Source of the DNA: a virus
Taxonomy: Duplodnaviria > Heunggongvirae > Uroviricota > Caudoviricetes
Direction: 5' to 3' (one strand)
DNA length: 38,014 nt
Virus record (IMG/VR): IMGVR_UViG_2718218361_000004
Shown: positions 7,701-38,014 of the stretch, one piece after another
Layout of the letters: each line of letters starts with the position of its first letter
Position numbering within the stretch: position 1 is the stretch's first letter
Notes under the pieces: model-generated
What the model saw: only the letters and a program-made list of their open reading frames with translations
What the model was told of the DNA's origin: nothing
Database searches by the model: none
Position numbers and translations under genes: made by a program

Positions 7701-7821
7701 CACGGGAGTTTCTGATTGCGCCAGCCAGCTCTTTCGAACTGGCCTGTGCAGCACGGAATGGGCGGGTGAGTTTGTCAACCGCATTAAGAATGACCTGCAG
7801 GCGCAGGTTGTTATCACTCAT
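4744..7821 (-). CDS. tail tape measure protein gpT
   Basis: 1025-aa Ala/Gly-rich ORF with coiled-coil N-terminal half and hydrophobic repeats, immediately downstream of E/E'. Confidence 0.88.
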   Translation of the reverse strand: MSDNNLRLQVILNAVDKLTRPFRAAQASSKELAGAIRNSRDALKQLNQAGNSLEKFRKLQADNKKLGDRLNYARQKANLLSSELEAMEQPSQRHLVALGRQTLAVQRLEEQQKYLQKQTALVRAELYRAGISAKDDAGATARLARETSRYNQELSKQEARLKRLGEAQRRMNAARASYARSLEVRDRIAGAGATTTAAGLAMGTPVMAAVKSYTSMEDAMKGVAKQVNGLRDDNGNRTARFYEMQDAIKAASEQLPMENGAVDFAALVEGGARMNVANPDDSWEDQKRDLLAFASTAAKAATAFELPADELSESLGKIAQLYKIPTRNIEQLGDALNYLDDNAMSKGADIIDVMQRLGGVADRLDYRKAAALGSTFLTLGAAPEVAASAANAMVRELSIATMQSKSFFEGMNLLKLNPEVIEKQMTKDAMGTIQRVLEKVNALPQDKRLSAMTMLFGKEFGDDAAKLANNLPELQRQLKLTAGNDALGSMQKESDINKDSLSAQWLLVKTGAQNTFSSLGETLRQPLMDILYTVKSVTGALRRWVEANPELTGTLMKVAAVVAAVTVGLGTLAVALAAVLGPLAVIRLGFSVLGIKTLPSVTAAVTRTSNALSWLAGAPLALLRRGLASSGNAAGLLTAPLSSLRRTASLTGNVLKTVAGAPVALLRSGLSGLRAVAVMFMNPLAVLRGGLTAAGTVLRVLASGPLAMLRVALYAISGLLGALLSPIGLVVTALAGVALVVWKYWQPITAFLAGVVEGFKVAAGPVSAAFEPLKPVFQWIGDKVQALWGWFTDLLTPVKSTSAELQSAAAMGRRFGEALAEGLNMVMHPLDSLKSGVSWLLEKLGIVSKEAAKAKLPESVTRQQPATVNADGKVMMPSGDFPSWGYGFAGMYDSGGYIPRGQFGIVGENGPEIVNGPANVTSRRNTAALAAVVAGMMGVAAAPAELPPLHPLALPAKGGEAMVSRAATVPPVHRIEAPTQIIIQTQPGQSAQDIAREVARQLDERERRLKAKARSNYSDQGGYDA

Positions 7822-8250
7822 CGTTGGCCCCGCATCTCTGGATCGCTTTATACCGCCATTCCAGCACTTCGGTCAGCGGCATAACGTCAGTAACGGATGG
7901 CGGCCAGTGAAAAATGGTGGCGATATCTGCCACCAGATCGTCAACCGTCAGGCTGTCGGTAAACCGGCAAGCACCGACTTCTTCAACAAAAAAGTGACAA
8001 CCTCAACCGACATGGCTGTGAGATCTGCCGGGTCCATCTCTGCGATTTCCTGTGCAGTCAGTGCCGGACTGGAGATGCGGGGGATCACGGTCATCATCGC
8101 GTTCACATCCATATCCATAATGGCCTGCAGGCGTGTGCCGCGCAGCGCACCAGACTGCGGTTTACGCAACACAATTTCGGTAATTTCTGTTTTACCGCGC
8201 ATGATGGGGGTATCCAGTTGAATGGTCTTTTCAGTCTGTTTATCGCTCAT
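7814..8250 (-). CDS. gpE+E' fusion made by programmed -1 frameshift at TTTTTTG (minus-strand 7987-7993)
   Basis: The -1 frame stays open from the slippery site to a TGA at 7814-7816 that overlaps the T start codon (ATG 7819-7821). This gives about 146 aa, comparable to P2 E+E'. Confidence 0.65.
7948..8250 (-). CDS. tail assembly chaperone gpE
   Basis: 100-aa ORF between FII and T; ends ...EVVTFLLKKSVLAGLPTA with the slippery heptamer T TTT TTG in frame. Confidence 0.8.
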   Translation of the reverse strand: MSDKQTEKTIQLDTPIMRGKTEITEIVLRKPQSGALRGTRLQAIMDMDVNAMMTVIPRISSPALTAQEIAEMDPADLTAMSVEVVTFLLKKSVLAGLPTA

Positions 8251-8304
8251 TTTGTTGTCCTGTAAATTAGGTTCTGGCGCGGCATTCCGCGCCGTTCAGA
8301 TACA

Positions 8305-8820
8305 TCAGAGGCCGAGGGCGTTGCGGTGCGCTTCCATCAGGTCCACACCGTCCACAATTTCCACCATGTTGATAAGGTCCACTTCATAGAGCACCTCACC
8401 ATTGATGGTCAGCTTCGCGTAGCTGTTGGTACTGGTCACTTTGGTGGTGTTGCTTTCGCCCGTCTTCCACTCGCCGGAATCCACTTCTTTGTGACGTCCA
8501 CGCACGACAAGCTCCACGGCCTGCACTTCCCCGGTATCGTCACGCTGGATAGAGCCGGTAAAGCGCAGCTGGATGCCATCCACCGTGGATTTGCCCATCT
8601 GCTTAAACAGCAGCAGTTCAGTACCACCAATGGAAAATTCTGTATCCAGTGCACTGTCATCCAGTCCCAGATCCACATCCACCGCCCCCGGCATACCGCC
8701 GCCGCGATACTTCTCATATTTGCGGGTGAATTTCGGCAGCGTCAGCGACTCAACGATCCCCTGCCAGTTGTTCCCGTCGTTAAACAAGTTCAGATGTTTT
8801 AATTTACGTGGTAAAGCCAT
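8305..8820 (-). CDS. tail tube protein gpFII
   Basis: 171-aa ORF downstream of FI, matching P2 FII in size and order. Confidence 0.85.
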   Translation of the reverse strand: MALPRKLKHLNLFNDGNNWQGIVESLTLPKFTRKYEKYRGGGMPGAVDVDLGLDDSALDTEFSIGGTELLLFKQMGKSTVDGIQLRFTGSIQRDDTGEVQAVELVVRGRHKEVDSGEWKTGESNTTKVTSTNSYAKLTINGEVLYEVDLINMVEIVDGVDLMEAHRNALGL

Positions 8821-8829
8821 GTTGTCCCC

Positions 8830-10002
8830 TTACGCGCTGACCTGGCTGGCGAAATTCACCAGGTACTGATCGGTGATGCGCTGGCGCAGCATCAGATTTT
8901 CAAGTGGCGGCACTGGCGTGTAGTCATAGTCGATGGTGAGTTTTCCGGCTTTCAGCGTGTCTTTGTCGTTCACCGACTCATCCAGCCAGCAATCACCACC
9001 AATGAGATAGCCCTGACTGACCAGGCTGCGCATTTTGGCGCGGATACCTTCGATAATGTCGCGGGCCAGCGACGGGTTAAGCGGTTTATCCACCGCCCAC
9101 ATGTGTGCTTCTGCCATCGTGTCCATCAGCACCTGCGCCGTGCGGGTGTAGTTTTCGAAGGCAAAGAGCGGGTCATCACTCAGGCTGCGGGAACCCCAGA
9201 AGCGGAAACCGTCTTTACGCACAAGCGTGGTGACGTCGTTCTGGTTAAGCAGTCCCGCATCGGTTGCCGGGTCCTGCAGATCCCAGAACACATCAGCAGA
9301 AATTCCGGTGACACCGTTCACGCCCACGTTGGACAGGCTTTTGTGCCATCCGGTCTGCTCGTCAATTTTGGCGCGCAGACCAAGCGCACGGGCGGTGGCA
9401 TATGCCGTTGCTTCGGCATTCAGCACCGTGTCCCAGCCAGTAAAGTCGGGCCAGATCAGCATCCCTTCGCGCTGGCTGAAGTTTTCGCGGTAAGTGATCG
9501 CCTCCTGCACTGTCTTGCAGCCATACGCTGACAGGTAAGCAAACCCACGCAGGCTTTGCGCCACGCTCAGCAACTCAGTCGCAACGGCTTTGTTATCGTG
9601 ACCAGGTACGCCGAGAATGCGCGGTTTAACGCCGAGCTGTGTCTGGGCAGATAACAGGGCTTTCATGCCTGTTTTTTTACCTTCAGCAGTCACTGCGCCG
9701 ATGATATTGGTCGTGGTTTCTTCTTCCGTTTCCCCCTGCGGCACACGCACAACAACGGTCACGGGTTTTGCCTGGTCAGCGATGGCATCCAGCGAACGGG
9801 CCAGCGTGCCGGACTCACCCGCTTTACCGCTGGCAGTCAGCACATCAGTGATCAGCACGGGTTTATTAAGAGGAAACATTTTTGCATCGGCATCATCGCC
9901 CGTGCAGACCATACCCACGATGGCGGTGCTCACCGTGGTAATGGATCGGGTGCCTTCGTTGACTTCAACAACGCGCACCCCGTGGTGGTAATCCTGAGCC
10001 AT
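8830..10002 (-). CDS. contractile tail sheath protein gpFI
   Basis: 390-aa ORF at the head of the FI-FII-E-T-U-D operon. Confidence 0.88.
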
Positions 10003-10144: not shown

Positions 10145-10711
10145 TCAGGGGGATTCATTGCTCTTATTTGCCGGAAATTTTCTATAAATTGTGGAAACAC
10201 CCACATCAAAAATCAGTGCAATACGCTGTCTTGATTCTCCGGCCTCGAGTAAGCGTCCAATCTGTGCCCACTGTTCTGTGGTCAACTTAGGACGGCGTCC
10301 ACCTACTCTGCCTTTGGCGCGAGCTGCAGCCAGCCCCGCCCTGGTACGTTCAACTATCAGTTCGCGTTCCATTTCAGCCAGGGCACCCATGACATGAAAA
10401 AAGAAACGGCCCATTGGGGTGCTGGTATCAATACTGTCAGTCAGGCTTCGGAAATTCACACCACGCTGGCGCAACTCTTCTATCAGCGTAACAAGATGCC
10501 GCATACTGCGCCCCAACCTGTCCAGCTTCCAGACAACCAGCGTGTCTCCTGCCGTTAGTGTCCTGAGCAGTTTTTTCAGCCCTGGTCTGTCGGACTTTGT
10601 GCCACTGATTTTGTCCTCAAAAATCCGCTCACATCCCGCGCAGTTCAGTGCATTACGTTGCAAATCGGTGTTCTGGTCATTTGTTGACACGCGTACATAG
10701 CCAATAAGCAT
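10145..10711 (-). CDS. serine DNA invertase (Hin/Gin/Pin/Cin family)
   Basis: N-terminus MLIGYVRVSTNDQNTDLQRNAL with the catalytic Ser motif and a C-terminal HTH (GVSTIYRKF). ATG at 10711 preceded by GGGGG; directly abuts the invertible segment. Confidence 0.9.
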   Translation of the reverse strand: MLIGYVRVSTNDQNTDLQRNALNCAGCERIFEDKISGTKSDRPGLKKLLRTLTAGDTLVVWKLDRLGRSMRHLVTLIEELRQRGVNFRSLTDSIDTSTPMGRFFFHVMGALAEMERELIVERTRAGLAAARAKGRVGGRRPKLTTEQWAQIGRLLEAGESRQRIALIFDVGVSTIYRKFPANKSNESP

Positions 10712-10778
10712 GATCATCCCCCTGAATAAAAACCGGGGATGATGCCAGTTAGCCATTATCTCTGCATTTTCATAAACG

Positions 10779-10812
10779 TTGGTTTGGGAGAAGCGGCAAA
10801 ACGGAATGTAGG
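10779..10812. repeat. left inverted repeat with hix/gix-like recombination site
   Basis: 34-bp stretch ttggtttgggagaagcggcaaaacggaatgtagg is the exact reverse complement of 12326-12359; the adjacent cccAAACCAACGTTTat resembles a hix/gix half-site. Confidence 0.75.
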
Positions 10813-11152
10813 AACAGGGGAAAATCAGATACCGGACATGACCTCTTTTGCCAGTGGTGATGGATGGATGAAATTACCCAACGGGAAAATCCTGCAATAT
10901 GGTCGTGGTGCGATTACGCCGACATTATCGACGCAAACAATGAGAATTACATTCAGCATCCCTTTTCCTAAAGAAGTGGACTGCGCCATGCTTACCCATT
11001 CTGGTGATGGTGGTGCGCCTTTAGGCGCTGGACGGGGATTCGTGATGACTGCAGAAGGTCCAACACTAACCGGTTTTAATTCCGCTTACAGAACTGCATC
11101 AACCAGCTCCACAGTATCGATGAATTACAGTTGGTGGGCTGTTGGTGAGTAA
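10781..11152 (+). CDS. alternative tail-fibre C-terminal exon, silent in the present orientation
   Basis: Begins inside the inverted repeat in frame with [18 protein letters not shown], the same peptide found in gpH at its repeat. The upstream part of the track ORF (10739-10780) lies outside the segment and is probably not translated. Confidence 0.7.
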
Positions 11153-11172
11153 TTTTATTCAGGGTGATTTAT

Positions 11173-11616
11173 ATGAACGAATATGTTTATAGCGCAAGGC
11201 ATAATGCTTTTTTCCCTGTGGATATGATTGATAAATATAAATCAGAGGGATGGGATTTATCAGACGCAAAGGAAGTAAATCAAAATATTATCAGTGAATT
11301 TATGGCTGAACCGCCACAAGGAAAAATCCGTATTGCCGGAGATGATGGGCTGCCTGCGTGGGCAGATATTCCTCCACCCACGCATGAAGAGCTTATTGAA
11401 ATTACTGAATCAGAAAAACAGCTACTAATTAACCAGGCTAACGAATACATGAACAGTAAGCAATGGCCTGGCAAAGCAGCTATTGGTCGTCTGAAAGGTG
11501 AGGAACTGGCGCAATATAATTTGTGGCTGGATTACCTGGACGCACTGGAACTGGTGGATACCTCCAGTGCTCCAGATATTGAATGGCCTACACCTCCGGT
11601 AACTCAGGCCAGCTAA
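11173..11616 (+). CDS. tail-fibre assembly protein, alternative copy (Tfa')
   Basis: 147 aa from the ATG at 11173; C-terminal motif VDTSSAPDIEWPTPP shared with the convergent Tfa. Confidence 0.75.
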   Translation: MNEYVYSARHNAFFPVDMIDKYKSEGWDLSDAKEVNQNIISEFMAEPPQGKIRIAGDDGLPAWADIPPPTHEELIEITESEKQLLINQANEYMNSKQWPGKAAIGRLKGEELAQYNLWLDYLDALELVDTSSAPDIEWPTPPVTQAS

Positions 11617-15954: not shown

Positions 15955-17007
15955 TCATTCAAAATTAATAATGTCGGAAAATATATCCTGCATTAAACAA
16001 GAAATATCAATAAGAGTTTTTTCCTTAATAGGATCAGAGATCTCCAAGGACTTTATCACGAACAATATTCGTTCAGCTGCTGGTAAATAGTGAGATGGAT
16101 CAGACGTTTCAATTGCCGAAAAAAATATAGCTATTCCAGCAATCGCAAGAATCATCAGAATACCTTCACCTTCACATATAATGGACGCAATCCTAATCCC
16201 CCATTTGTCAGCCTCCTTCTCAACCTCTGATTCAACTAAATCAGGCTGCTGATGATTCATCATGGCATGAGAATATTCATGAGCGGCTACGAATAACTCA
16301 CAGCCAAAGACCATATTATATATAATCTTTTGCCCTACAGGACAGAAGTTAATTATCGATGTATAAGCAAGTTCACCACGTACATTGTAATTCTTAAAAA
16401 AATCCCTCCATTCGTTTAAGTCAATCTTGCTTTGTAATAAAGCGCTTCTATTCTTCTCACTACTCAAATATTTTTCCCACTCTGACCGCCACTCTTTTTC
16501 ACTACTACCTTGCAGAAGAGTATTAGGATAACTGCTAACAAACAAACTAATTACACCATGAATAAATTGAAAAATCCCAGACTCAAAAATTGTGAAAACC
16601 TTTGACTTTCCGTCTAGGCATTTAACTGGCGCGGCAAGTGCACTAACTCTGCCGGTTGGAGCACAACAAAACCCACCATAGTTTTGGTGATCAAAAGGAA
16701 ATATCTTTGCTACTAATTCAACCTTACTCATCAAGCGAGATGCAATGCTATAACTCACACGATCATCATAGATTGTTGGAAGAGTAACTACACCTTGAAT
16801 ATTGTTTGATAACTCTTCAATACAATCAGAAGGTAAATTATCCATTTTATTACGCACATAAGAAAAACCCTCATCACTATTTAATGACTGAGCCAACTGA
16901 TCCTCTTTATATACCTGAGTGCCTAGACTATTCTTTATAATATACTCTTCAATATATCTTTCTAGTTTTTTATAATCATCATTATATTCAGACATTAATT
17001 TAATCAT
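15955..17007 (-). CDS. AT-rich cargo protein with C-terminal HExxH metallopeptidase-like motif (ImmA/IrrE-like pattern)
   Basis: 350-aa ORF in a visibly AT-rich island between V and S. Carries HEYSHAMMNH followed by E-x-E-K-E-A-D-K-W and a hydrophobic stretch ILMILAIAGIAIFF; the N-terminal ~250 aa are unrecognised. Confidence 0.6.
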   Translation of the reverse strand: MIKLMSEYNDDYKKLERYIEEYIIKNSLGTQVYKEDQLAQSLNSDEGFSYVRNKMDNLPSDCIEELSNNIQGVVTLPTIYDDRVSYSIASRLMSKVELVAKIFPFDHQNYGGFCCAPTGRVSALAAPVKCLDGKSKVFTIFESGIFQFIHGVISLFVSSYPNTLLQGSSEKEWRSEWEKYLSSEKNRSALLQSKIDLNEWRDFFKNYNVRGELAYTSIINFCPVGQKIIYNMVFGCELFVAAHEYSHAMMNHQQPDLVESEVEKEADKWGIRIASIICEGEGILMILAIAGIAIFFSAIETSDPSHYLPAAERILFVIKSLEISDPIKEKTLIDISCLMQDIFSDIINFE

Positions 17008-22719: not shown

Positions 22720-24486
22720 ATGAACACCACACTGACACCCGCAGATCTCGATCCCCGTCGGCAGGCCATGCTGCTGTACTTTCAGGGATACCGCGTCGCC
22801 CGCATTGCTGAAATGCTGGGCGAGAAAGTTGCAACCGTTCACAGCTGGAAAAAACGCGACAAGTGGGGTAACTATGGGCCGCTGGATCAGATGCAGCTCA
22901 CCACCGCCGCACGCTACTGCCAGCTCATTATGAAGGAGCACAAAGAAGGGAAAGATTTCAAAGAAATTGACCTGCTGGCACGCCAGTCTGAGCGCCACGC
23001 GCGGATCGGCAAGTTTAACAATGGCGGCAACGAAGCCGACTTAAACCCTAACGTTGCCAACCGCAACAAAGGCCCACGTCGTCAGCCGGAAAAGAATGTT
23101 TTCACCGATGAACAGATTGAGAAACTGGAAGAAATCTTCCATTCCTCTATGTTCAACTACCAGCGCCACTGGTGGGAAGCCGGAAAAACCAACCGCATCC
23201 GCAACCTGCTGAAGTCACGCCAGATCGGCGCGACCTTTTACTTTGCCCGTGAAGCCCTGATTGACGCCCTGCTGACCGGGCGTAACCAGATTTTCCTTTC
23301 TGCCAGCAAGGCTCAGGCCCACGTCTTTAAACAGTACATCATCGACTTTGCCAAAGAAGTGGAGGTGGAGCTGAAAGGCGATCCGATGGTGCTTCCTAAC
23401 GGGGCCACGCTTTACTTCCTCGGCACCAATGCCCGCACGGCCCAGAGTTACCACGGCAACCTGTATCTGGATGAATATTTCTGGATACCGAAATTCCAGG
23501 AGCTGCGCAAAGTGGCTTCCGGTATGGCTATTCACAAAAAATGGCGACAAACCTATTTTTCCACGCCATCCAGTCTGACACACAGTGCTTATCCGTTCTG
23601 GTCCGGTGCGCTGTTCAACCGTGGGCGCAACAAAGCCGATAAGGTGGACATCGACCTGTCCCACAGCAATCTGGCCCCCGGCCTGCTGTGCGCAGACGGG
23701 CAATACCGCCAGATAGTCACCGTGGAAGATGCGGTGCGCGGCGGCTGTAACCTGTTCGACCTCGACCAGCTACGCATGGAGTACAGCCCAGACGAATACC
23801 AGAACCTGCTGATGTGCGAGTTTGTGGACGATCTCGCGTCCGTGTTTCCGCTCAGCGAGCTGCAGGCGTGCATGGTGGACAGTTGGGAAGTCTGGACCGA
23901 CTTTCATGCACTGGCGCTGCGCCCGTTTGGCTGGCGCGAAGTGTGGATCGGTTATGACCCGGCAAAAGGTACGCAAAACGGCGACAGCGCTGGATGCGTG
24001 GTGGTGGCACCGCCAGCCGTGCCGGGTGGTAAGTTCCGCATTCTTGAGCGTCACCAGTGGCGCGGGATGGACTTCCGCGCCCAGGCTGACGCCATCAAAA
24101 AACTTACCGAACAGTACAACGTGACTTATATCGGTATCGACTCAACCGGCGTTGGTCACGGGGTTTACGAGAACGTGAAAGCGTTCTTTCCTGCCGTCCG
24201 GGAGTTTGTCTACAACCCCAACGTTAAAAACGCCCTGGTACTCAAGGCCTACGACATTATCAGCCACCGCCGTCTGGAGTTTGACGCCGGGCACACCGAC
24301 ATTGCGCAGTCATTCATGGCAATCCGTCGCGCAACCACCGCCAGTGGCAACCGCCCAACCTATGAAGCCAGCCGCAGCGAAGAAGCCAGCCACGCCGATC
24401 TGGCCTGGGCAACAATGCACGCACTGTTTAACGAACCACTGCAGGGCGAGTCCGCCAATACCAGTAATATTGTGGAGATTTTTTGA
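22720..24486 (+). CDS. terminase ATPase (large) subunit gpP
   Basis: 588 aa (P2 P is about 590), divergent from O. Confidence 0.9.
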   Translation: MNTTLTPADLDPRRQAMLLYFQGYRVARIAEMLGEKVATVHSWKKRDKWGNYGPLDQMQLTTAARYCQLIMKEHKEGKDFKEIDLLARQSERHARIGKFNNGGNEADLNPNVANRNKGPRRQPEKNVFTDEQIEKLEEIFHSSMFNYQRHWWEAGKTNRIRNLLKSRQIGATFYFAREALIDALLTGRNQIFLSASKAQAHVFKQYIIDFAKEVEVELKGDPMVLPNGATLYFLGTNARTAQSYHGNLYLDEYFWIPKFQELRKVASGMAIHKKWRQTYFSTPSSLTHSAYPFWSGALFNRGRNKADKVDIDLSHSNLAPGLLCADGQYRQIVTVEDAVRGGCNLFDLDQLRMEYSPDEYQNLLMCEFVDDLASVFPLSELQACMVDSWEVWTDFHALALRPFGWREVWIGYDPAKGTQNGDSAGCVVVAPPAVPGGKFRILERHQWRGMDFRAQADAIKKLTEQYNVTYIGIDSTGVGHGVYENVKAFFPAVREFVYNPNVKNALVLKAYDIISHRRLEFDAGHTDIAQSFMAIRRATTASGNRPTYEASRSEEASHADLAWATMHALFNEPLQGESANTSNIVEIF

Positions 24487-25523
24487 TGGGAAAGAGTAAG
24501 AAGAACCGCGCTGCGTCGACGAACCAGATCCAGCATAAAAGTCAAACTACAGCCGAAGCATTCAGCTTCGGTGATCCCGTTCCTGTTCTGGACCGCCGCG
24601 AACTACTGGACTATGTGGAATGCGTACAGACAGATCGCTGGTATGAGCCGCCAGTAAGCTTTGACGGACTGGCGCGCACCTTCCGCGCCGCCGTGCATCA
24701 CAGTTCACCAATTGCGGTGAAATGCAACATTCTGACCAGTACCTACATCCCCCACCCGCTGCTCAGCCAGCAGGCTTTTTCACGTTTTGTGCAGGACTAT
24801 CTGGTATTTGGTAACGCCTACCTGGAGAAACGCACGAACCGCTTCGGTGAAGTTATCGCCCTTGAGCCTGCTCTGGCAAAATACACCCGACGCGGGTTAG
24901 ACCTGGATACCTACTGGTTTGTGCAATACGGTATGACAACCCAGCCGTATCAGTTCACGAAAGGCAGCATTTTTCATCTGATGGAACCGGACATTAACCA
25001 GGAGATCTACGGCCTGCCCGGCTATCTTTCTGCCATTCCGTCCGCCCTGCTCAATGAGTCTGCCACGCTGTTCCGTCGAAAGTATTACATTAACGGCAGT
25101 CATGCTGGCTTCATCATGTACATGACCGACGCTGCGCAGAACCAGGAGGACGTGAACAACCTCCGCAACGCGATGAAAAGCGCCAAAGGTCCAGGCAACT
25201 TCCGCAACCTGTTTATGTACTCGCCTAACGGCAAAAAGGACGGCCTTCAGATCATCCCTTTGTCAGAAGTTGCGGCGAAGGATGAGTTTCTGAATATCAA
25301 AAATGTCAGCCGCGATGACATGATGGCAGCACATCGCGTTCCGCCACAGATGATGGGGATAATGCCTAATAATGTTGGGGGTTTTGGGGATGTGGAGAAG
25401 GCAAGCCGTGTCTTTGTACGTAATGAGTTAACGCCTCTACAACAAAGAATTAAAGAACTAAACGAATGGATAGGCGACCATGTCATGCAATTTATGAAAT
25501 ATACATTTGACGATATAAACTAA
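24483..25523 (+). CDS. portal protein gpQ
   Basis: 346 aa, overlapping the P stop by 4 nt. Confidence 0.88.
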   Translation: MMGKSKKNRAASTNQIQHKSQTTAEAFSFGDPVPVLDRRELLDYVECVQTDRWYEPPVSFDGLARTFRAAVHHSSPIAVKCNILTSTYIPHPLLSQQAFSRFVQDYLVFGNAYLEKRTNRFGEVIALEPALAKYTRRGLDLDTYWFVQYGMTTQPYQFTKGSIFHLMEPDINQEIYGLPGYLSAIPSALLNESATLFRRKYYINGSHAGFIMYMTDAAQNQEDVNNLRNAMKSAKGPGNFRNLFMYSPNGKKDGLQIIPLSEVAAKDEFLNIKNVSRDDMMAAHRVPPQMMGIMPNNVGGFGDVEKASRVFVRNELTPLQQRIKELNEWIGDHVMQFMKYTFDDIN

Positions 25524-25533
25524 TTTTAAAAAT

Positions 25534-25563
25534 AGGGTGCCATCATTTAAGCAATGGCACCCT
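25534..25563. terminator. bidirectional hairpin between convergent Q and cargo gene C
   Basis: Perfect 10-bp stems AGGGTGCCAT / ATGGCACCCT with a 10-nt loop, A/T-rich on both flanks. Confidence 0.55.
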
Positions 25564-25570
25564 CTACATT

Positions 25571-26266
25571 TTAAAATTTAGCAAGCTCCATATAAGAAAT
25601 AGCATCATTAAAGACCGACACATGTTCTTCAGGAATTATTGCCGAGGCTCCACTAGTTAGTTCAAAGCTAAATTTAGAGTCATGATATAGCCCCCCAACT
25701 TTTATTTTATCGAGTTTAAAATCATTATCCAAAACAAATTTTTTCAAATCATTTAAAGCATCTCCACTAGAATTCAGCTCTAAACACGCCCTTGTTTTAT
25801 CAGTAACAGGAACATTTGAAACTTTCACCTTTGAGATGGCGAAGACTTTGACTCCAAACTCCTCCCTAATTATTTTCATAAAAGCCTTGAGATCTACCGT
25901 CAAGTTTCCATAGGCAACATTTACCCCTTCACCTTTTGACAAGAAATCAATAAAAGACTTAACTGTCTTCGGAGGATTATAAAAAGTCAACAAACATAAT
26001 TTATTACTTAATGTTTGGATAGAAAAACCAATCTGTTCAAAAACAATCCTTTCGAACTCTAAAATATCACCAAATGGATCAGAAACTGGCTCCAACATTA
26101 TAGTTTTTTTATTAAAAGTCGCAGATATTCCATTGTGAATAGTTTCAAACTTAGTAAAACCAGCACCAATAGCATCAGAATAAGGGGTGTTTTTGATAAA
26201 ATCAAAGATCGCTTCAGAACTGGTTCTGATCTTTAATCTCATCCACTTTAATCTTAACTGTGACAT
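25571..26266 (-). CDS. cargo operon gene C, hypothetical protein
   Basis: 231 aa from the ATG at 26266 with AAGGAG 5 nt upstream; AT-rich; no recognisable motif by eye. Confidence 0.7.
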   Translation of the reverse strand: MSQLRLKWMRLKIRTSSEAIFDFIKNTPYSDAIGAGFTKFETIHNGISATFNKKTIMLEPVSDPFGDILEFERIVFEQIGFSIQTLSNKLCLLTFYNPPKTVKSFIDFLSKGEGVNVAYGNLTVDLKAFMKIIREEFGVKVFAISKVKVSNVPVTDKTRACLELNSSGDALNDLKKFVLDNDFKLDKIKVGGLYHDSKFSFELTSGASAIIPEEHVSVFNDAISYMELAKF

Positions 26267-26285
26267 ATCCACTCCTTATGATGAA

Positions 26286-27350
26286 TTAGCTAATTTCCAT
26301 TATAATAGAATAAGCTCTATTTTCAATTAATTTATTAAATCTATCGGTTTCTCTAGCTGAAAGCTTTTGAGGTTTACTGAAATATTGACCGTTAGACTTA
26401 TATTTTTTCACTCCTTTTACTAAATATGAAAAATTAGTACAGTTTAGTGGATCTCCGAATTGAGCTTCGAGTTCATAAATATCTGGGTCTGCTAGTTTCT
26501 CTTTAACCTTCCATTTTATTTTCCAGATATAAAAGCCCCTATCATAAAGATCACTAAGTTCATCAGATTTAAGAACTCCCTCTCCTTTCAGAGATGCTTT
26601 TGACACATGAACTCCAGTTTCAGTATTTCCCTCTTCTGCTTCTATTGTTTCAGGTTTTGGATGATATACATAAGCATCCGTAACATCGTCTAATTCATAT
26701 CCATCTAGGCTACGGATTAATTTATCGAAAAACAGTGTCCTAACATCTGCGGAGCTATTATGAGCAAGAGTAATTTCGTTTAATTTTAAATCAAGATTAC
26801 TGTCATTATCTTGTTCACTCTGAATCGAAATTATATGCCCGAGGAGGAGATCTTCATAATCTTTGAGATTCTCGTTATCGGGACGACGGATGCTATAACC
26901 TTTATCAATAGGCTCGATTTCAATTAAAGCTTCTTTATTTACAGCCTGCTTAAAATCGCTTTTACTATAATTGGTCGATAGATATCTTATATCTATAAGA
27001 ACTCGAGAACCATCAATAATAATTTTACAATAATCATCCTGAGCAGTTATTTCTTTTTTTAACTTCTCTGCTGCCACTATGATATCGTCCTTAGTGACAC
27101 TGGATTCAATTCTTACACATGTATTTTTTTCAGCTCTTGTCTGACCTCCGAGTAATGTTGCTATCTTCTGATGTTCATAATAATCATGAGTCATCCGAGA
27201 GTAGTTTTTGGCTAGATCTTTTCTAGGGGTTTTTTTACAAATAATAGTACCTCTTTCCAAGAAAAGATCCTGTATTTCATTTAATGTAATCTGCTTTTGA
27301 TTCAAAGCATCACATAAAGCCTTGTCAGTTACACTATGAATATTTTTCAT
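26286..27350 (-). CDS. cargo operon gene B, hypothetical acidic protein
   Basis: 354 aa from the ATG at 27350 with a GGGAG Shine-Dalgarno; its ATG overlaps the stop of gene A (ATGA). Confidence 0.7.
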   Translation of the reverse strand: MKNIHSVTDKALCDALNQKQITLNEIQDLFLERGTIICKKTPRKDLAKNYSRMTHDYYEHQKIATLLGGQTRAEKNTCVRIESSVTKDDIIVAAEKLKKEITAQDDYCKIIIDGSRVLIDIRYLSTNYSKSDFKQAVNKEALIEIEPIDKGYSIRRPDNENLKDYEDLLLGHIISIQSEQDNDSNLDLKLNEITLAHNSSADVRTLFFDKLIRSLDGYELDDVTDAYVYHPKPETIEAEEGNTETGVHVSKASLKGEGVLKSDELSDLYDRGFYIWKIKWKVKEKLADPDIYELEAQFGDPLNCTNFSYLVKGVKKYKSNGQYFSKPQKLSARETDRFNKLIENRAYSIIMEIS

Positions 27351-28411
27351 TTCGGCTCCCAAGAAATAACCTCAGAAGAAAAGAATTCTTTTACAGTAGA
27401 GACAACTTTGACATCCAGATCTTCAAGTCTCTTTTTAGCCTCTTCATCCAGTCCATACTCATGAACATACTTTTCGATCCCACGCTGAAAATGCGACATA
27501 ACTCTATTATCTTTCTCACGATACGCCAATCTTATTCTAATTTTATTTATACCATCTAAAATTTGATAATTAGAAAGCAAGTCTAGCAAATAAAAGAATT
27601 CATTATCGCTATTACCTTTTCTATTGTAATATATAACAAATCCCTCTGGATAAACCATTTCCTCAATACCTTTAGCCCTATTGAATTTATAAACAGGACC
27701 ATGTTTAATAATCATAAATGGTGATAACAAAACTTCAATAGTTGCAGGAAGGTATTTTTCAGTTACAGCAACCTTATGGAAAATAAGTTGAGGATAATAG
27801 AATCCATAATCCTCATCTGGAAATTCTTTTTTTGCAATTAAGTCATTCATATCATTCGTTACTGCCAACATATAATTAATAAGAAATGGATCAATTATAT
27901 GAATTTGCTGACCAGCACATAACGGAATCTTTTCTAAGTTTACAGCCTTATCTCTCCTTCCTTTAGTAGGTTTAGGAGGATTAAAGAAATCATAAAAATC
28001 ATGTTGCAATTGATTATCATGATTAAAAACAAATAATAAACCTCGAACTTCGAAATCAATTTGAGAAAAGTTATATTTTTCTGACCATTCCTGGCTATAT
28101 CGAGCACAATCAATTGTTTTTGCTAAAGACTCTAATGCAGACTCTATCTTTGTTGCATTAATAGAACCAGCCTTATAACTTTTCAAATCAGTATTTAAAT
28201 AAATAATTTTATTTAAATATGGATCTTTATAACTAAATACCACATCCACTGGGTGTGTGTGCTTTTGTTTTTTACCTTCAGGCTTATGTTTTGTTTCATT
28301 ATCACAAGAGAAATCTTGGTCACAGGGGCCATGCTGTTGCCACTTAAAACGACTCATAAGATCGTTAGAAATGCGTTTTGCTAAGTCTTCAATAGGGCCA
28401 TTCTCTGCCAT
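27347..28411 (-). CDS. cargo operon gene A, hypothetical protein
   Basis: 354 aa with AAGGA Shine-Dalgarno. The N-terminal region has a possible PD-(D/E)xK-like arrangement (PVDVVF…NTDLKSYK), which is an inference only. Confidence 0.7.
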   Translation of the reverse strand: MAENGPIEDLAKRISNDLMSRFKWQQHGPCDQDFSCDNETKHKPEGKKQKHTHPVDVVFSYKDPYLNKIIYLNTDLKSYKAGSINATKIESALESLAKTIDCARYSQEWSEKYNFSQIDFEVRGLLFVFNHDNQLQHDFYDFFNPPKPTKGRRDKAVNLEKIPLCAGQQIHIIDPFLINYMLAVTNDMNDLIAKKEFPDEDYGFYYPQLIFHKVAVTEKYLPATIEVLLSPFMIIKHGPVYKFNRAKGIEEMVYPEGFVIYYNRKGNSDNEFFYLLDLLSNYQILDGINKIRIRLAYREKDNRVMSHFQRGIEKYVHEYGLDEEAKKRLEDLDVKVVSTVKEFFSSEVISWEPK

Positions 28412-28446
28412 TTCATTTCCTTACTTTTGCAGACAAATCTCATTGA

Positions 28447-28475
28447 AAGATAAAGGTAAGCTTTTTGGGTTGCAA
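28447..28475 (-). promoter_or_regulatory. candidate sigma70 promoter of the cargo operon
   Basis: On the minus strand TTGCAA (28470-28475), 17-nt spacer, TATCTT (28447-28452), about 30 nt upstream of the gene A Shine-Dalgarno. Confidence 0.4.
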
Positions 28476-28509
28476 GAACTTTGGACTTGATGTGAGAAGC
28501 TTAACGCGC

Positions 28510-28528
28510 GCTCGTATCCCCGCCACGC
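28510..28528. other. candidate cos (cohesive-end) site
   Basis: Minus strand reads GGCGTGGCGGGGATACGAG. The first 13 nt match my recollection of the 186/P2 cohesive end (GGCGTGGCGGGGAAAGCAT / GGCGAGGCGGGGAAAGCAC); it lies in a GC-rich block between the tum module and the cargo operon. From memory only. Confidence 0.4.
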
Positions 28529-28574
28529 CTGCCCGCTTTATGCAGTGGTTTTCATGCACCTGCATGATCTACGC

Positions 28575-28598
28575 AAAAGCCCGCCAGTTCTGGCGGGC
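28575..28598 (-). terminator. rho-independent terminator of the SOS (tum-like) operon
   Basis: GCCCGCCAG / CTGGCGGGC palindrome followed on the minus strand by TTTT, downstream of the DinI-like gene. Confidence 0.55.
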
Positions 28599-28733
28599 CT
28601 TAGCAAAAACGATCCTCAAACGATCATGCGATCTCATGCGGCATAGACATGCACTACAGAGCTAACGCCTCGCAAGGGCTCGTTGTTCAACCTTGCTGAC
28701 GCCAGAAGCAAGTTCAGACGCCAGCAACGTTTC

Positions 28734-29318: not shown

Positions 29319-31733
29319 TTAATACAGATCCCGCCACTTATCATCTTCCTGCAAACGCTGGTTCCGATAGAAGATACGCAGGCCTGCTCCTGACGGAATA
29401 CTGCCGCCGCGAAGGAGTAAACCGACCTCTTTCTCGCTGCCATCAAATCCTCTGGACTTCAGCTCATAGACGAGCTGCTGTCGCTGATGGTCTGTAATTC
29501 GCTGTTTGTAGTCTTTACGCCGTTTCGGTTTCACCAGGCGTAACCTTGCAGCCAGTTCCCGGCGCTCTTTTTTGCTCATACTGTGCAGGTAATCGTGCAA
29601 CTCCTTGTCATCCATGCGGGTAATGTCCGTTCTGGTATCCCCATAAGCTGATTTGTCTTTCCCTTGTTGGTTCAAATTTTCAGCAAGGGGACAGTTATTG
29701 CCACGAGTCCAAGGGGCGCAAGCGCCCTGGTCGGCTGCCGCCTCCTGAACGTCAACGGCCTTACGAACCATTTTCCACTTCACTGCATGAGTGCAGATCT
29801 TGCCCTCTGCAATGGGTGACCAGATGCCATAAATACGAATACCGTGATCGCCATAGGCGGTTGGCTCTTCGTTGATTTCATAAGCGGTTCTGATGAGGTG
29901 ATATTTGCGGGGAACCAGTACGCCGCCCTGCTTCATGATGTAGGTGGCAAAACAACCAGCATCAGCAGCAGCCAGAATGGCATCAAGGCGCGGGTTATCC
30001 AGTACCGGCGCACCTGCTTTTTTGTCACCCTGTTGCCTTGCCGCCTGACCAGCCAGCAAGCGAAGTTCACGGTAAGCCTGACGTCCCGGAATACCAAAGA
30101 AGCGGAATTGCTGAACACGATGCAGAGACGCCCAGGCATTAACGTATTCAGCGTTATCACGCAGGGATTTACCCGTTTCCTTGCTGATCTCGCCAGCCAG
30201 ACCACGCCCGTCAATGTTCTTACTGATGTATTTCGCGATGTAGCTTGTCGGCGTTCCTTTGCGCGGGTTTATCAGCTCAGATTTAAAGCGTGGACCAGTG
30301 TTATTACCCAGTTCCTCGCGGTCTTCACGGATGGCAAACTTACGCAACAATGCAGTAATGGCGCGGCGGTCTTTTTTGCGCATGAAACACAACAGGTGCC
30401 AGTGAACTGTACCGTCATGATGCGGCTCAGCCACCCGCACGCCATACCAGCGCAACCCGGCTTTGTGCATCGCCTTACGAAATGCAGCAAACATGCCGAC
30501 CAGATAATCGCTGCTTTGTCTTACCGTCGCATTTGTCCAGGTTGGGTTTGGTCTGCCGTTATTGAGCGTGGAATGGAAACGTGACGGACAGGTAATGGTG
30601 TAGAAAACGGCGCAGTCACCGCGCATTTCCGCGATAAGCTCCAGACCTTTAACACAGGCCATCATCTCATTGCGGCGGTGCGCCGGGTTGCTGCTGCTGG
30701 CGTTTACCACGTCTTCCATATCCAGCGTGTCGCCCTCTTCGTTCACCAGTTCATGAGAACGGAAAAACTCCAGTGACTTGCGGCGCTGCTCACGTTTATG
30801 CATCACGGCTTCATAGCTGACATAGGGAGATGCTTTTTTGCTGACCAGGCAGATAGCACGCAACTGCTCTTCCCGCCATTCGCAACGCATTTTCCATAAT
30901 TTCCGGTACCACCAGTCGGCGCACAACATACGCGCCAGCGAACCCGGAATGAGTTCATAGGGCACGGGTTTACGGCGGTTTCTTTTCCGGCGGAGTTGCT
31001 CAAACGCAGGCGGGATGACATCCAGACGCAGGGTTTCCGCTGCCACCTTTTCCCATGTCTTGCGGATTTCTTCTGGCTTAACGTCATCGGTGGCATACAA
31101 ATCACCACAAGCTGCATCAAGGCACATGCTCATATGCGCAGCGACAAGGGTAGACAGGCGTTTCACCTGATCCTGACTCATTTCAGGCAGAATCAGCAGG
31201 CCGTCCAGCCCTACATGGCTTGCCATAAAACGAAAAGATGCAGATAGCTGGCTGTCGCGTACATGCTCCAGTCGTTCCAGACATGGCTTAATCGTCTCAC
31301 GTAAATAGCGGGAATAAGCCTTTGGCCTGCCCAGGCTGCTGAAGTATTCAATACGTTGCATCAGCGGCTTGCTGATATGGGAGGGCTGGGCGCTGACGTC
31401 TGCCAGAATGACCATGTCCGGGTTAAAACGCTGCTGCTCATGCGCCAACTTTGCCCGGCTAATGAGCTTATCCTGCTCTATTTCGCGTTGGACAGGATCA
31501 CGGGATTCATTAAAGAAATAACGCTCCCAGACCTGATCACTCAGTGCCTCGCGGCGCAGTTGTTCCTGCTCGTTATCGGCAGCGTACAGAGTGATCAGGT
31601 TTGAAAGCGCAGAAACCGGCGCAACTTCCGCCGGGTCCAGATAAGGGTTAATGGCCTTTTTCGGGCTGTTCCATGAGAACGATGCGGCAGCCTCGTTAAA
31701 GCCGCAGCAGTTGCTCATATCGGCATGGCTCAT
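29319..31733 (-). CDS. replication initiation protein gpA (rolling-circle nickase family)
   Basis: 804-aa ORF at the P2 A position downstream of the early operon. Confidence 0.85.
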
Positions 31734-34638: not shown

Positions 34639-34763
34639 GATGCAACATTCCTCTTTTAGCAATGATTAATCAGGATGAATACTGATCGTTTGTATTATGT
34701 GAACACTGCAAACATACGATCACATCATGAAATCGTCAAGGTAAAAGTTCACTTGGAGTGACC
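34639..34763. promoter_or_regulatory. immunity switch region (lytic/lysogenic promoters and operators)
   Basis: 125-bp AT-rich region between divergent apl/cox and cI; individual promoter elements not resolved. Confidence 0.5.
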
Positions 34764-35327
34764 ATGAATTTGGAAAAAGGCGGTCGTGGGGCCATAGAGC
34801 GCATGGTTGAAGCCTATGGTTTCAAGACAAGACAAGCTTTGTGTGATCATTTGGGCATTTCTAAAAGCACCTTAGCCACGCGCTATATGCGTGATTCATT
34901 CCCGGCAGAATGGGTAATCCAATGTGCACTTGAAACCGGCACGTCGCTAGAGTGGCTAACTACTGGGCAAGGTTCAAAAGAAAGTTCACAAAAAGAAAAC
35001 ACAAAAGAGATCGAAAGGAAGATTTTATCAAGCGGAAAACTACTTCCTGATGGTTACTACATTTTCGACAACAACTTTTTGCCTGAAAAACTAAAAAAAC
35101 CTTTTGTTGTGATCGATGGCGCATCAGAGTTTATCTGTGATTCGGATTATGAGGATGTACGTGATGGTAAGTGGATCGTTGATATTGATGGCGAGGTTGC
35201 TATCAGGAATCTGACAAGACTGCCGGGACGTCGCCTAAATGTCGATGGCGGCAGCAGTTCCTTTGAATGCAAAATAGATGAAATTGATATCATAGGAAAA
35301 ATTAGAAGCGCGATCGTCAATTATTAA
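34764..35327 (+). CDS. immunity repressor CI (186 CI-like)
   Basis: 187 aa from the ATG at 34764 (GGAG 5 nt upstream); N-terminal [25 protein letters not shown]. Confidence 0.8.
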
Positions 35328-35536: not shown

Positions 35537-35547
35537 GGTTGCTTCAT

Positions 35548-36879
35548 ATGAATAATGATATGACTTTTGAAAACAGAGATGAGTATAATAGAAAAATCAT
35601 TGCTGAAAAAATAATAAGCTTACTCGAGTCCCCCTTAAAAATATCCCCTATTGTTATCGATGGGGACTGGGGTACCGGTAAAACCGAATTTTCAAAAAAA
35701 TTAGCGGCATTGATTGAAAAAAATGAATCTGGGCATAAAGTAGTATATATTGATGCATTTACTGAAGATCATAATGATGCTCCCATACTTACTATAATGG
35801 CTGCAATAGTTGCATTATATCCAGAGAGTGAAAAGAAGGAATTAATATCAAAGGCATTACCAGCATTGAGATTTGGACTTAAAACTGTACTCAAAGCTGG
35901 CGCTGGGTGGATTTTAAAACAAAATGCAGATGATATTGCGGATGAATTCGAAGATGCTATTAAAGATGCGGCTAACTCAGCTATAGATGGTACTGTAGAA
36001 GCACTGCTTGATGATCATATTGAAGCAAAGAAACATTTGCTTGCTCTCAAGGAAGTACTTGCTGAACTAACTAGCGAAAATAAAATAACAATTATCATTG
36101 ACGAACTTGACCGTTGTAAACCAAGCTTTGCCATCTCTATCATCGAAAATATAAAACATGTTTTTGACACTGAAAATCTTAACTTCTTGTTAGTTGCTAA
36201 CATCTCACAATTGAAAGCATCAATAAATCATATTTACGGTGCAGGTGTTGACTCAGAAAGATATCTTGATAAATTTATAAAATTCACTTACAGCCTGCCA
36301 GTGACTTTCACTGAAAACAATTACGATAAAATTTTGGCTTCGAACTCTCATTTTAGAATGCTATGTAACGAGTCTGAAAGACTAAAAGAAATTGGAGAAA
36401 GTAGTATTCATATAGTTCAAAAATTTATCGAACTAAAAGGCTTGTCGCTACGGGAAGTTGAAACCTTATCAAGATATCTAGAAATTTATCAAATTTTATC
36501 TCAAAATAAAATCAGCAATAAATTTATACCAGGCTATTGCTGTTATCGAACCCTTGCAGTAATTCTTTATTCGTTTGGTCGTGAACTGGCCCTTAACTAC
36601 GTAGAAGATAAAATAGATGCACAATTAATAATCAATTTCTTCGGTGTTAATAGACTCCCATATCAGACAGATCAATATAACAACAACATCTACTATTATG
36701 CATTATTTGGTATAACTTATAAATATATGCCAGAAGGTTCTCCTTTACTTCCTTCTGAAAACGATGAAAAAAACAGATGGGCTGAAATAAGTGATTATCA
36801 TATTTTAAAAGGAAATGCAGGTGTAGAAGACCCTGTTAGAATATTCAAAAACACCTTAAAAGTTTTCTTGCTCCAATGA
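35548..36879 (+). CDS. KAP-family P-loop NTPase
   Basis: Walker A GDWGTGKT and KAP-type Walker B IIIDELDRC; no obvious transmembrane insert; 11 nt after the small ORF; AT-rich. Confidence 0.8.
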   Translation: MNNDMTFENRDEYNRKIIAEKIISLLESPLKISPIVIDGDWGTGKTEFSKKLAALIEKNESGHKVVYIDAFTEDHNDAPILTIMAAIVALYPESEKKELISKALPALRFGLKTVLKAGAGWILKQNADDIADEFEDAIKDAANSAIDGTVEALLDDHIEAKKHLLALKEVLAELTSENKITIIIDELDRCKPSFAISIIENIKHVFDTENLNFLLVANISQLKASINHIYGAGVDSERYLDKFIKFTYSLPVTFTENNYDKILASNSHFRMLCNESERLKEIGESSIHIVQKFIELKGLSLREVETLSRYLEIYQILSQNKISNKFIPGYCCYRTLAVILYSFGRELALNYVEDKIDAQLIINFFGVNRLPYQTDQYNNNIYYYALFGITYKYMPEGSPLLPSENDEKNRWAEISDYHILKGNAGVEDPVRIFKNTLKVFLLQ

Positions 36880-36961: not shown

Positions 36962-38014
36962 ATGGCAGTACGAAAACTCAACACAGGTAAATGGATTTGT
37001 GAATGCTACCCCGCCGGGCGCAATGGGCGGCGTGTGCGTAAGCAGTTTGCAACTAAGGGTGAAGCATTGGCTTTTGAGCGTCACACGATGGAAGAAACCG
37101 AAGCAAAACCCTGGCTGGGTGAATCAGTGGATCGTCGAACACTGAAAGACGTGGTTGAGCTATGGTTCAAACTACATGGTAAATCTCTGACGGCTGGGCA
37201 GCATGTCTATGACAAATTGCTGTTGATGGTTGACGCTCTGGGAAATCCCATTGCAACCGATCTCACCTCTAAAATGTTTGCCCACTATCGAGATAAACGC
37301 CTGACAGGAGAGATCTACTTCAGCGAAAAATGGAAGAAAGGAGCAAGCCCGGTCACCGTTAACCTGGAGCAAAGCTATCTAAGTAGTGTTTTTAGCGAAC
37401 TATCCCGCCTGGGCGAATGGTCGTATCCGAACCCACTGGAGAACATGCGAAAATTCACCATCGCAGAAAAAGAGATGGCATGGCTTACCCATGAACAGAT
37501 TGTTGAATTGCTGGCTGATTGCAAACGTCAGGACCCAATTCTGGCACTGGTAGTCAAGATATGCTTAAGCACAGGCGCACGCTGGCGAGAAGCAATAAAT
37601 CTTACCCGTTCACAGGTGACTAAATACCGAATTACCTTTGTCAGAACGAAGGGGAAGAAAAACAGAAGCATTCCCATCAGTAAAGAGCTTTACGAAGAGA
37701 TTATGGCACTTGATGGGTTCAATTTCTTTACAGACTGCTATTTTCAATTTTTATCCGTGATGGAAAAAACGTCTATCGTGCTCCCTCGCGGTCAACTGAC
37801 ACACGTTCTGCGTCATACGTTTGCGGCGCATTTTATGATGTCGGGTGGAAACATCCTGGCCTTACAAAAAATTCTCGGGCATCACGATATAAAAATGACG
37901 ATGCGTTACGCACATCTGGCACCGGATCATCTGGAAACGGCGCTCCGTTTCAACCCTCTGGCAACGCTGCCAAGTGGCGACAAAGTGGCGGCAGCGGTTG
38001 GCATTACCCCGTAA
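36962..38014 (+). CDS. int: tyrosine integrase (P2 Int family)
   Basis: N-terminus MAVRKLNTGKW… resembles P2 Int (MAIKKLDDGRY…); C-terminal HxxR…Y catalytic region (VLRHTFA…RYAHL); stop codon is the last 3 nt of the window. Confidence 0.9.
   Translation: MAVRKLNTGKWICECYPAGRNGRRVRKQFATKGEALAFERHTMEETEAKPWLGESVDRRTLKDVVELWFKLHGKSLTAGQHVYDKLLLMVDALGNPIATDLTSKMFAHYRDKRLTGEIYFSEKWKKGASPVTVNLEQSYLSSVFSELSRLGEWSYPNPLENMRKFTIAEKEMAWLTHEQIVELLADCKRQDPILALVVKICLSTGARWREAINLTRSQVTKYRITFVRTKGKKNRSIPISKELYEEIMALDGFNFFTDCYFQFLSVMEKTSIVLPRGQLTHVLRHTFAAHFMMSGGNILALQKILGHHDIKMTMRYAHLAPDHLETALRFNPLATLPSGDKVAAAVGITP

Follow-up and report, generated by a model that had tools for sequence, protein, structure and literature searches.

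The three-gene locus at positions 25571-28411 of a 38,014-nucleotide stretch of viral DNA (IMG/VR record IMGVR_UViG_2718218361_000004, Caudoviricetes; the whole stretch is called the window) was analysed. The host element of the window is a P2/186-like prophage, and the genes lie on the minus strand beside the portal gene Q. Comparison of the three predicted proteins, Hp1, Hp2 and Hp3, with models of known defence systems indicated by homology that the locus is a divergent member of Rst_3HP, a named and experimentally validated defence family, and not an undescribed one. The fuller reading is considered probable: a member of this family that belongs to the variable cargo of the Q-cos-A hotspot, acts through a ring-scaffolded deoxyribonuclease (DNase) and is expressed in the lysogen from its own weak promoter. 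An earlier note on this DNA had proposed a candidate undescribed anti-phage system built of unrecognisable proteins. The anti-phage candidacy is borne out at the level of the family, activity having been demonstrated for the homologue from Escherichia coli E1114; the novelty of the system and the unrecognisable nature of its proteins were not upheld.

All three proteins were matched by the PADLOC-DB models of one system. Hp1 (354 aa; protein A of the earlier note) matched the Hp1 model PDLC03004 with an E-value of 1.2e-64, residues 3-328 being aligned with profile positions 4-308 of 333. Hp2 (354 aa; protein B) matched the Hp2 model PDLC03005 over nearly its full length (E 1.5e-39), and Hp3 (231 aa; protein C) matched the Hp3 model PDLC03006 over residues 5-187 (E 1.1e-10), the weakest of the three. 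These models were derived from an E. coli E1114 system, 'hp + hp + hp' (plasmid pFR109), which protects against phage P1 and whose three protein sequences are given in Table S2A of Rousset et al. (2022, PMC9122126). It is named Rst_3HP in DefenseFinder and is classed as a mostly prophage-borne defence system (Tesson et al., PMC9090908). The BLASTP comparison with the E1114 proteins revealed 36% identity for Hp1 (E 1e-68), 30% for Hp2 (E 8e-42) and 23% over 173 aa for Hp3 (E 5e-12). The matches are colinear, with three adjacent co-oriented genes in the order Hp1-Hp2-Hp3 in both loci and proteins of similar size (333/359/227 aa in E1114, 354/354/231 aa in the window). The PADLOC matches and the homology to E1114 therefore place the locus in the known Rst_3HP family; clear homology to an already-named defence system, which the earlier note had set against its own reading, was thus found.

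Other PADLOC matches of the trio were at noise level, for example PtuA (E 0.006), and all three proteins fall in PHROGs families of unknown function. The Pfam scan gave no match at E<=1 for any of them, with a Pfam set that apparently lacked PF26115. By megablast the island had no match in the phage collection, and the WP accessions of the window proteins were not found in the part of the supplements of Rousset et al. that was available. Homology to P2 Old (an OLD-family ATPase-nuclease) or to Tin was also considered and rejected, as there was no PADLOC, Pfam or NCBIfam match. The P2 genes old, tin and orf91 share with the window locus the same hotspot niche and the same role of prophage-encoded exclusion cargo.

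The E1114 system and the window locus are alike also in their setting: in both, AT-rich cargo of a P2-like prophage occupies the hotspot between Q and A. They differ in placement. The window copy lies between Q and cos and converges with Q, whereas the E1114-type copies, like most others, lie beyond cos on the A side and point the same way as Q. Activity from the native promoter has been reported for the E1114 clone; the window operon's own promoter is a putative one.

Predicted subunits and the relation to GAPS4

The first gene, Hp1 (28411->27347, minus strand), is predicted to encode a PD-(D/E)xK nuclease of the GAPS4a type, likely the effector of the system; this assignment is new. The N-terminal domain (residues 14-209) matched the NCBIfam model NF047933, 'antiphage_GapS4a', with an E-value of 3.7e-10 and 39.5 bits, and the same model matched 50 of the 61 Hp1 family members (best E 1.9e-15). 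By sequence this relation is one of remote homology and not of family membership. The Pfam family PF26115, 'PDDEXK_GAPS4', is precomputed on every Hp1 homologue in a large protein database, and the product name given by PGAP to an identical protein in one genome is 'PD-(D/E)XK nuclease domain-containing protein'. The alignment of 61 Hp1 sequences (32-100% identity) revealed eight invariant residues, H53, P54, D56, D75, L76, K77, S78 and Y79. These form the pattern HPxD...DLKSY, in which D56, D75 and K77 agree with the D...(D/E)-x-K signature of the PD-(D/E)xK nucleases. The possible PD-(D/E)xK-like pattern suspected in protein A is thereby confirmed. The sequence search of the Protein Data Bank (PDB) with the Hp1 profile returned noise only. 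The 150 matches listed in the protein search with the same profile were all full-length Hp1-type proteins, and no GAPS4a, GAPS4b or fused GAPS4a-b protein was among them.

The second gene, Hp2 (27350->26286, minus strand), is likely to encode the ring or scaffold and DNA-binding subunit. The link to the second GAPS4 protein came through the family: Hp2 of E1114 matched the NCBIfam model NF047934, 'antiphage_GapS4b', over residues 14-314 against profile positions 8-329 of 355 (E 2.2e-5, 23.5 bits). This model matched 3 sequences in a diverse Hp2 set of 34 and 1 in a closer set of 75. In the first Hp2 alignment the ten members that diverged most were all unmatched, and the match appeared only in the more diverse set. 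Chance is not a credible explanation, because the E-values account for 18,950 NCBIfam models and the family matched is the partner of GapS4a. The alignments thus point to the Hp2 family as a remote, near full-length homologue of GapS4b, short of family membership, and this assignment is also new. The GapS4b link of the window's Hp2, which has no such match of its own, is therefore transitive. The AlphaFold2 (AF2) model of Hp2 (mean predicted local distance difference test score, pLDDT, 84; predicted template modelling score, pTM, 0.73) showed an N-terminal four-helix domain followed by an alpha/beta body, which may be RdgC-like. No Pfam match at E<=1 was obtained for Hp2, the RdgC family of Pfam included, and its profile search gave no PDB sequence match.

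The third gene, Hp3 (26266->25571, minus strand), likely encodes a subunit that acts as partner, as gate or in specificity. By sequence it is a fast-evolving orphan, with no Pfam match at E<=1, no PDB profile match beyond noise and no NCBIfam match; its model is possibly RdgC-like. A paralogous origin of Hp2 and Hp3 was considered and rejected, the profile-profile probability being 0.1-1%. The median identity to the window protein among related loci falls from 41% for Hp1 and 36% for Hp2 to 23% for Hp3, so divergence climbs along the operon, and the Hp3 alignment holds 2 invariant positions only. Such steep divergence is the pattern that would be expected of a subunit under diversifying pressure.

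GAPS4, consisting of GapS4a and GapS4b, was described by Mahata et al. (bioRxiv 10.1101/2023.03.28.534373, 10.1101/2025.09.07.674715). The complex is a2b2, with GAPS4b predicted to form a ring, and the Asp of its HGxD motif is essential, since the Asp->Ala change abolishes defence (bioRxiv 10.1101/2025.09.07.674715). The same preprint reports that DNA breaks or linear DNA are the trigger, nalidixic acid leading to degradation of genomic DNA; that defence is abortive, the host DNA being degraded too and viability falling at high multiplicity of infection (MOI); and that incoming lambda DNA is also degraded. It makes no mention of 3HP. The resemblance to the window locus is seen at four points. 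Hp1 carries the same N-terminal GAPS4-type PD-(D/E)xK domain, the alignment of Hp2 family members with GapS4b is close to full length, the nuclease gene precedes the scaffold gene in both systems, and the predicted ring of GAPS4b would fit the RdgC-like model of Hp2. There are differences as well. GAPS4 has two genes, or one fused gene, whereas the window has three, and the obligatorily linked Hp3 has no counterpart in GAPS4. Hp1 has invariant H53-P54-x-D56 and D75-L76-K77-S78, that is, a canonical D-x-K (D75, K77) against the HGxD-SxK of GAPS4a, a comparison made with the published motif description only.

RdgC, RexA and IML3-CHL4 belong to one fold family (PDB 2OWL, 8TWQ; Adams et al. 2024, PMC11077077). 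Its members form homo- or heterodimers through an extended beta-sheet, giving rings or horseshoes that bind DNA non-specifically; RdgC of E. coli modulates the activities of RecA, and RexA biases the lysis-lysogeny switch of lambda (Adams et al. 2024, PMC11077077). RexA is also the sensor half of a prophage exclusion system. In the window the RdgC-like fold would be partnered with a nuclease and not with the membrane protein RexB or with RecA modulation, and the window proteins have no sequence similarity to this family and no Pfam RdgC match.

Taken as a locus, the operon is ordinary: it is one more occupant of the P2 hotspot, and it is detectable by PADLOC and DefenseFinder. Its interest lies in function. 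The literature search found no mechanistic paper on Rst_3HP, and a 2024 survey still places it among the systems without a recognisable domain. The Hp1-GapS4a and Hp2-GapS4b links, together with the RdgC-like models, give the three hypothetical proteins a testable mechanism, which predicts a nuclease licensed by a DNA-binding ring.

Layout and distribution of the cassette

The three genes form a compact minus-strand unit, as had been read earlier. The Hp1 stop and the Hp2 start overlap in ATGA at 27347-27350, and Hp2 and Hp3 are separated by 19 nt, with AAGGAG upstream of Hp3. On the Q side lie the terminase gene P (22720-24486, plus strand) and the portal gene Q (24483-25523, plus strand), whose end converges with that of Hp3 at a distance of 47 nt. 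The GC fraction is 0.29-0.35 over 25500-28250 against 0.53-0.58 in the P and Q genes, which bears out the AT-rich island of the earlier note; replication gene A (29319-31733) has about 0.52-0.54. The terminator scan found a strong hairpin terminator at 25563..25534 between the convergent genes and common to both; its 12-bp stem contains 6 G-C pairs and is followed by a minus-strand T-run, in agreement with the bidirectional hairpin said to close the island. No tRNA was found within the window.

The sigma70-like promoter attributed to the operon fared less well. The hexamers TTGCAA (28475-28470) and TATCTT (28452-28447), read from the minus-strand sequence with a spacing of 17 nt, match the sigma-70 consensus at 8 of 12 positions, which is under the threshold of the scanner, and the site was not called. 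The AT-rich stretch showed no excess of promoter-like sites (14 observed against 15.3 in shuffled sequences). In the upstream alignment of related prophages, both hexamers and the 17-nt spacing are kept despite a diverged spacer (L020, L023), and this lends modest support to the putative promoter.

On the side away from Q the island is bounded by the block gcgggcaggcgtggcggggatacgagcgcgcg (28536-28505), which is context and not a part of the system. This block is taken here to be cos from its likeness to the P2 and 186 cos sequences. It lies just upstream of the putative promoter, and the island is therefore located between Q and cos, as the earlier note had placed it. In the upstream alignment the block is nearly invariant among related P2-like loci, and it recurs in the hotspot fragments of E1114 and P2 that Rousset et al. 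cloned (Table S2A). The description of the interval as a defence-cargo hotspot likewise holds, the E1114 system standing in the same one. In strain S21, whose region is identical, RefSeq annotates a pseudogene ('hypothetical protein, internal stop') at about 28440-28637 of the window (minus strand), over the cos block and the operon promoter; this is probably an annotation artefact.

The turnover of cargo that the earlier note expected was evident in the genome comparison. Island DNA was found in 11 of 5,426 complete E. coli genomes, 5 of them at >=99% identity and 6 at 80-82%, and homologues of the adjacent portal gene in 1,241 of the same set; the island is thus present in <1% of related prophages. 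At the same site other related prophages carry DprA with a DUF2971 protein, or a STAS-like trio. The gene order was followed through 80 IMG/VR loci (L006-L085), which were collected by a pattern scan with the Hp1 alignment and analysed by open reading frame calling and hidden Markov model searches. In every locus with enough downstream DNA the order was Hp1>Hp2>Hp3, with genes overlapping or closely abutting, over an Hp1 identity range of 32-100%. Such a conserved trio speaks, on comparative grounds, for a real and selected unit. In one locus (L014, about 8060-9381) Hp2 is truncated and about 1.3 kb stands between Hp2 and Hp3, probably an insertion element disrupting the system.

P2-like Q and/or A flanks were present in 65 of the IMG/VR loci, and both flanks in 55. 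Copies of the window type converge with Q and lie between it and cos, the Hp3 end being about 48 bp from the Q end. Those of the E1114 type, together with two other subgroups, are transcribed in the direction of Q and lie about 400 bp downstream of it, beyond cos on the A side. These two placements of the cassette indicate that the P2 hotspot has at least two insertion points flanking cos.

The range of the cassette extends far beyond P2 phages. In an Alteromonas macleodii island the trio adjoins integrase and Mrr/NYN genes, and in a Paraburkholderia prophage it stands at the integrase end. In Pseudomonas phage 99-2 (OR621024.1, L086), a 13.5-kb filamentous (Tubulavirales) prophage, it is found at 6992-9889 beside the repressor; the Hp1 gene of this record is annotated 'nuclease related protein'. 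Plasmids of Vibrio, Aliarcobacter, Ralstonia, Azospirillum, Pseudomonas and Enterobacter carry it as well. The exhaustive profile search gave 506 Hp1 clusters at 50% identity, and the cassette occurs in Campylobacterota and in Alpha-, Beta- and Gammaproteobacteria.

Proposed mechanism and rival explanations

The homology of Hp1 to GapS4a and of Hp2 to GapS4b, with the RdgC-like fold, is the reason why 3HP is read here as a ring-scaffolded DNase. The operon would probably be expressed in the lysogen from its own weak promoter. We infer that the three proteins form a complex. Hp1, a GAPS4a-type PD-(D/E)xK enzyme by its sequence, would be the effector DNase with D56, D75 and K77 as catalytic residues. 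Hp2, RdgC-like and a relative of GapS4b, would serve as the scaffold, shaped as a ring or horseshoe, with non-specific binding to DNA and with Hp1 mounted on its N-terminal helical domain. Hp3, which may be RdgC-like too, would complete the ring as a heterodimer partner, in the manner of IML3 with CHL4, or would gate it. By analogy with GAPS4, linear DNA ends made by the phage or DNA breaks may activate the complex, which would then degrade DNA indiscriminately and lead to abortive infection.

Several results weigh against this reading. The window proteins share no more than 36%, 30% and 23% identity with those of the sole validated exemplar, the E1114 system, which was protective against just 1 of 8 phages (Rousset et al. 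2022, PMC9122126). The GapS4a score of Hp1 (39.5 bits) is far under the curated cut-off of 270 bits, and the nuclease assignment was made from sequence. The GapS4b score of E1114 Hp2 (23.5 bits) is likewise far under its cut-off of 300 bits, and the NCBIfam scan gave no GapS4b match at E<=1 for the window's own Hp2. The Foldseek search with the Hp2 model returned only borderline matches, to CHL4 and CENP-N (E about 1e-3, template modelling score 0.2-0.3), and did not return RdgC. The structure model of Hp3 is of moderate to low confidence, and the profile-profile comparison detected no sequence similarity between Hp2 and Hp3. GAPS4 needs no third protein, and Hp3 may alter the logic of the system. 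The putative promoter is weak by consensus.

A broader proposal is tentative and is held with much less confidence than the reading above. 3HP and GAPS4 could both belong, as separate branches, to a superfamily of 'DNA-integrity sentinels' in which a PD-(D/E)xK DNase is mounted on an RdgC-like, DNA-encircling ring. In 3HP this ring would be an Hp2-Hp3 heterodimer, with the rapidly evolving Hp3 as a gate or as the subunit deciding to which phages, or to which states of DNA ends, the nuclease responds. If true, RdgC, lambda RexA, GAPS4 and 3HP would be joined by one DNA-sensing module reused in phage exclusion.

Three rival explanations were weighed and none of them is favoured. The one that survives best, though it is unlikely, keeps the family and the nuclease and replaces abortive infection by direct immunity: the free ends of linear phage DNA, on injection, would be recognised by the complex or threaded through it, and this molecule alone would be degraded, the circular chromosome being spared. 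The P1-only range of the E1114 homologue would fit the need for a particular DNA-end state, and the degradation of incoming lambda DNA by GAPS4 points the same way. However, GAPS4 degrades host DNA too, with a loss of viability at high MOI. No signal for distinguishing self from non-self was seen in the sequence, and the PADLOC and Pfam scans of the locus proteins contained no methyltransferase or modification reader.

A much less probable explanation is that the operon serves the prophage itself, either by modulating recombination or RecA through RdgC-like proteins and a nuclease, or as an addiction cassette of toxin-antitoxin type that stabilises the prophage. The parallels are the modulation of RecA by RdgC and the bias given by RexA to the lambda switch, the position of the operon adjoining cos and near DinI-like and replication genes, and the tight three-gene unit with a nuclease, which recalls some toxin-antitoxin-chaperone layouts. 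Against these stands the protection conferred by the homologous E1114 operon when cloned alone, and the classification of the system by Tesson et al. as defence, mostly prophage-borne. The cassette also moves among unrelated elements (myovirus, inovirus, plasmids and islands), and its locus is dominated by defence cargo, with the cassette itself in <1% of related prophages. An inactive relic, with genes intact by chance or recently silenced and without function in this lysogen, would agree with the weak promoter and is scarcely credible given three intact open reading frames with invariant catalytic residues, conserved promoter hexamers, copies of >=99% identity in 5 complete genomes with copies of 80-82% in 6 more, and hundreds of family clusters.

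Other cargo of the prophage

Two further low-GC regions and one likely invertible segment were observed in the window. A gene for a KAP-family P-loop NTPase (35539-36879, plus strand; Pfam E 3.8e-51) is a second low-GC cargo, with a GC fraction of about 0.32-0.35; the CI repressor (34758-35327) lies on one side of it and the integrase (36962-38014) on the other. Its product matched the PADLOC candidate system PDC-S20 with an E-value of 1.3e-171 and showed weaker similarity to PifA and QatA. The third low-GC island (15955-17007, minus strand; GC 0.36) holds an orphan of 350 aa between the baseplate gene V and the tail-completion gene S. The orphan has no Pfam match and a weak PADLOC match to 'peptidase_U41' (E 7e-8, residues 137-273), and its site looks like another moron position of the prophage. 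A serine recombinase gene (Resolvase + HTH_7; 10145-10756, minus strand) adjoins oppositely oriented genes, one for an alternative tail-fibre C-terminus (Gp53-like_C) and one for a tail-fibre assembly protein, and the region 10145-11616, which contains it, is likely an invertible host-range segment of the Cin/Gin type.

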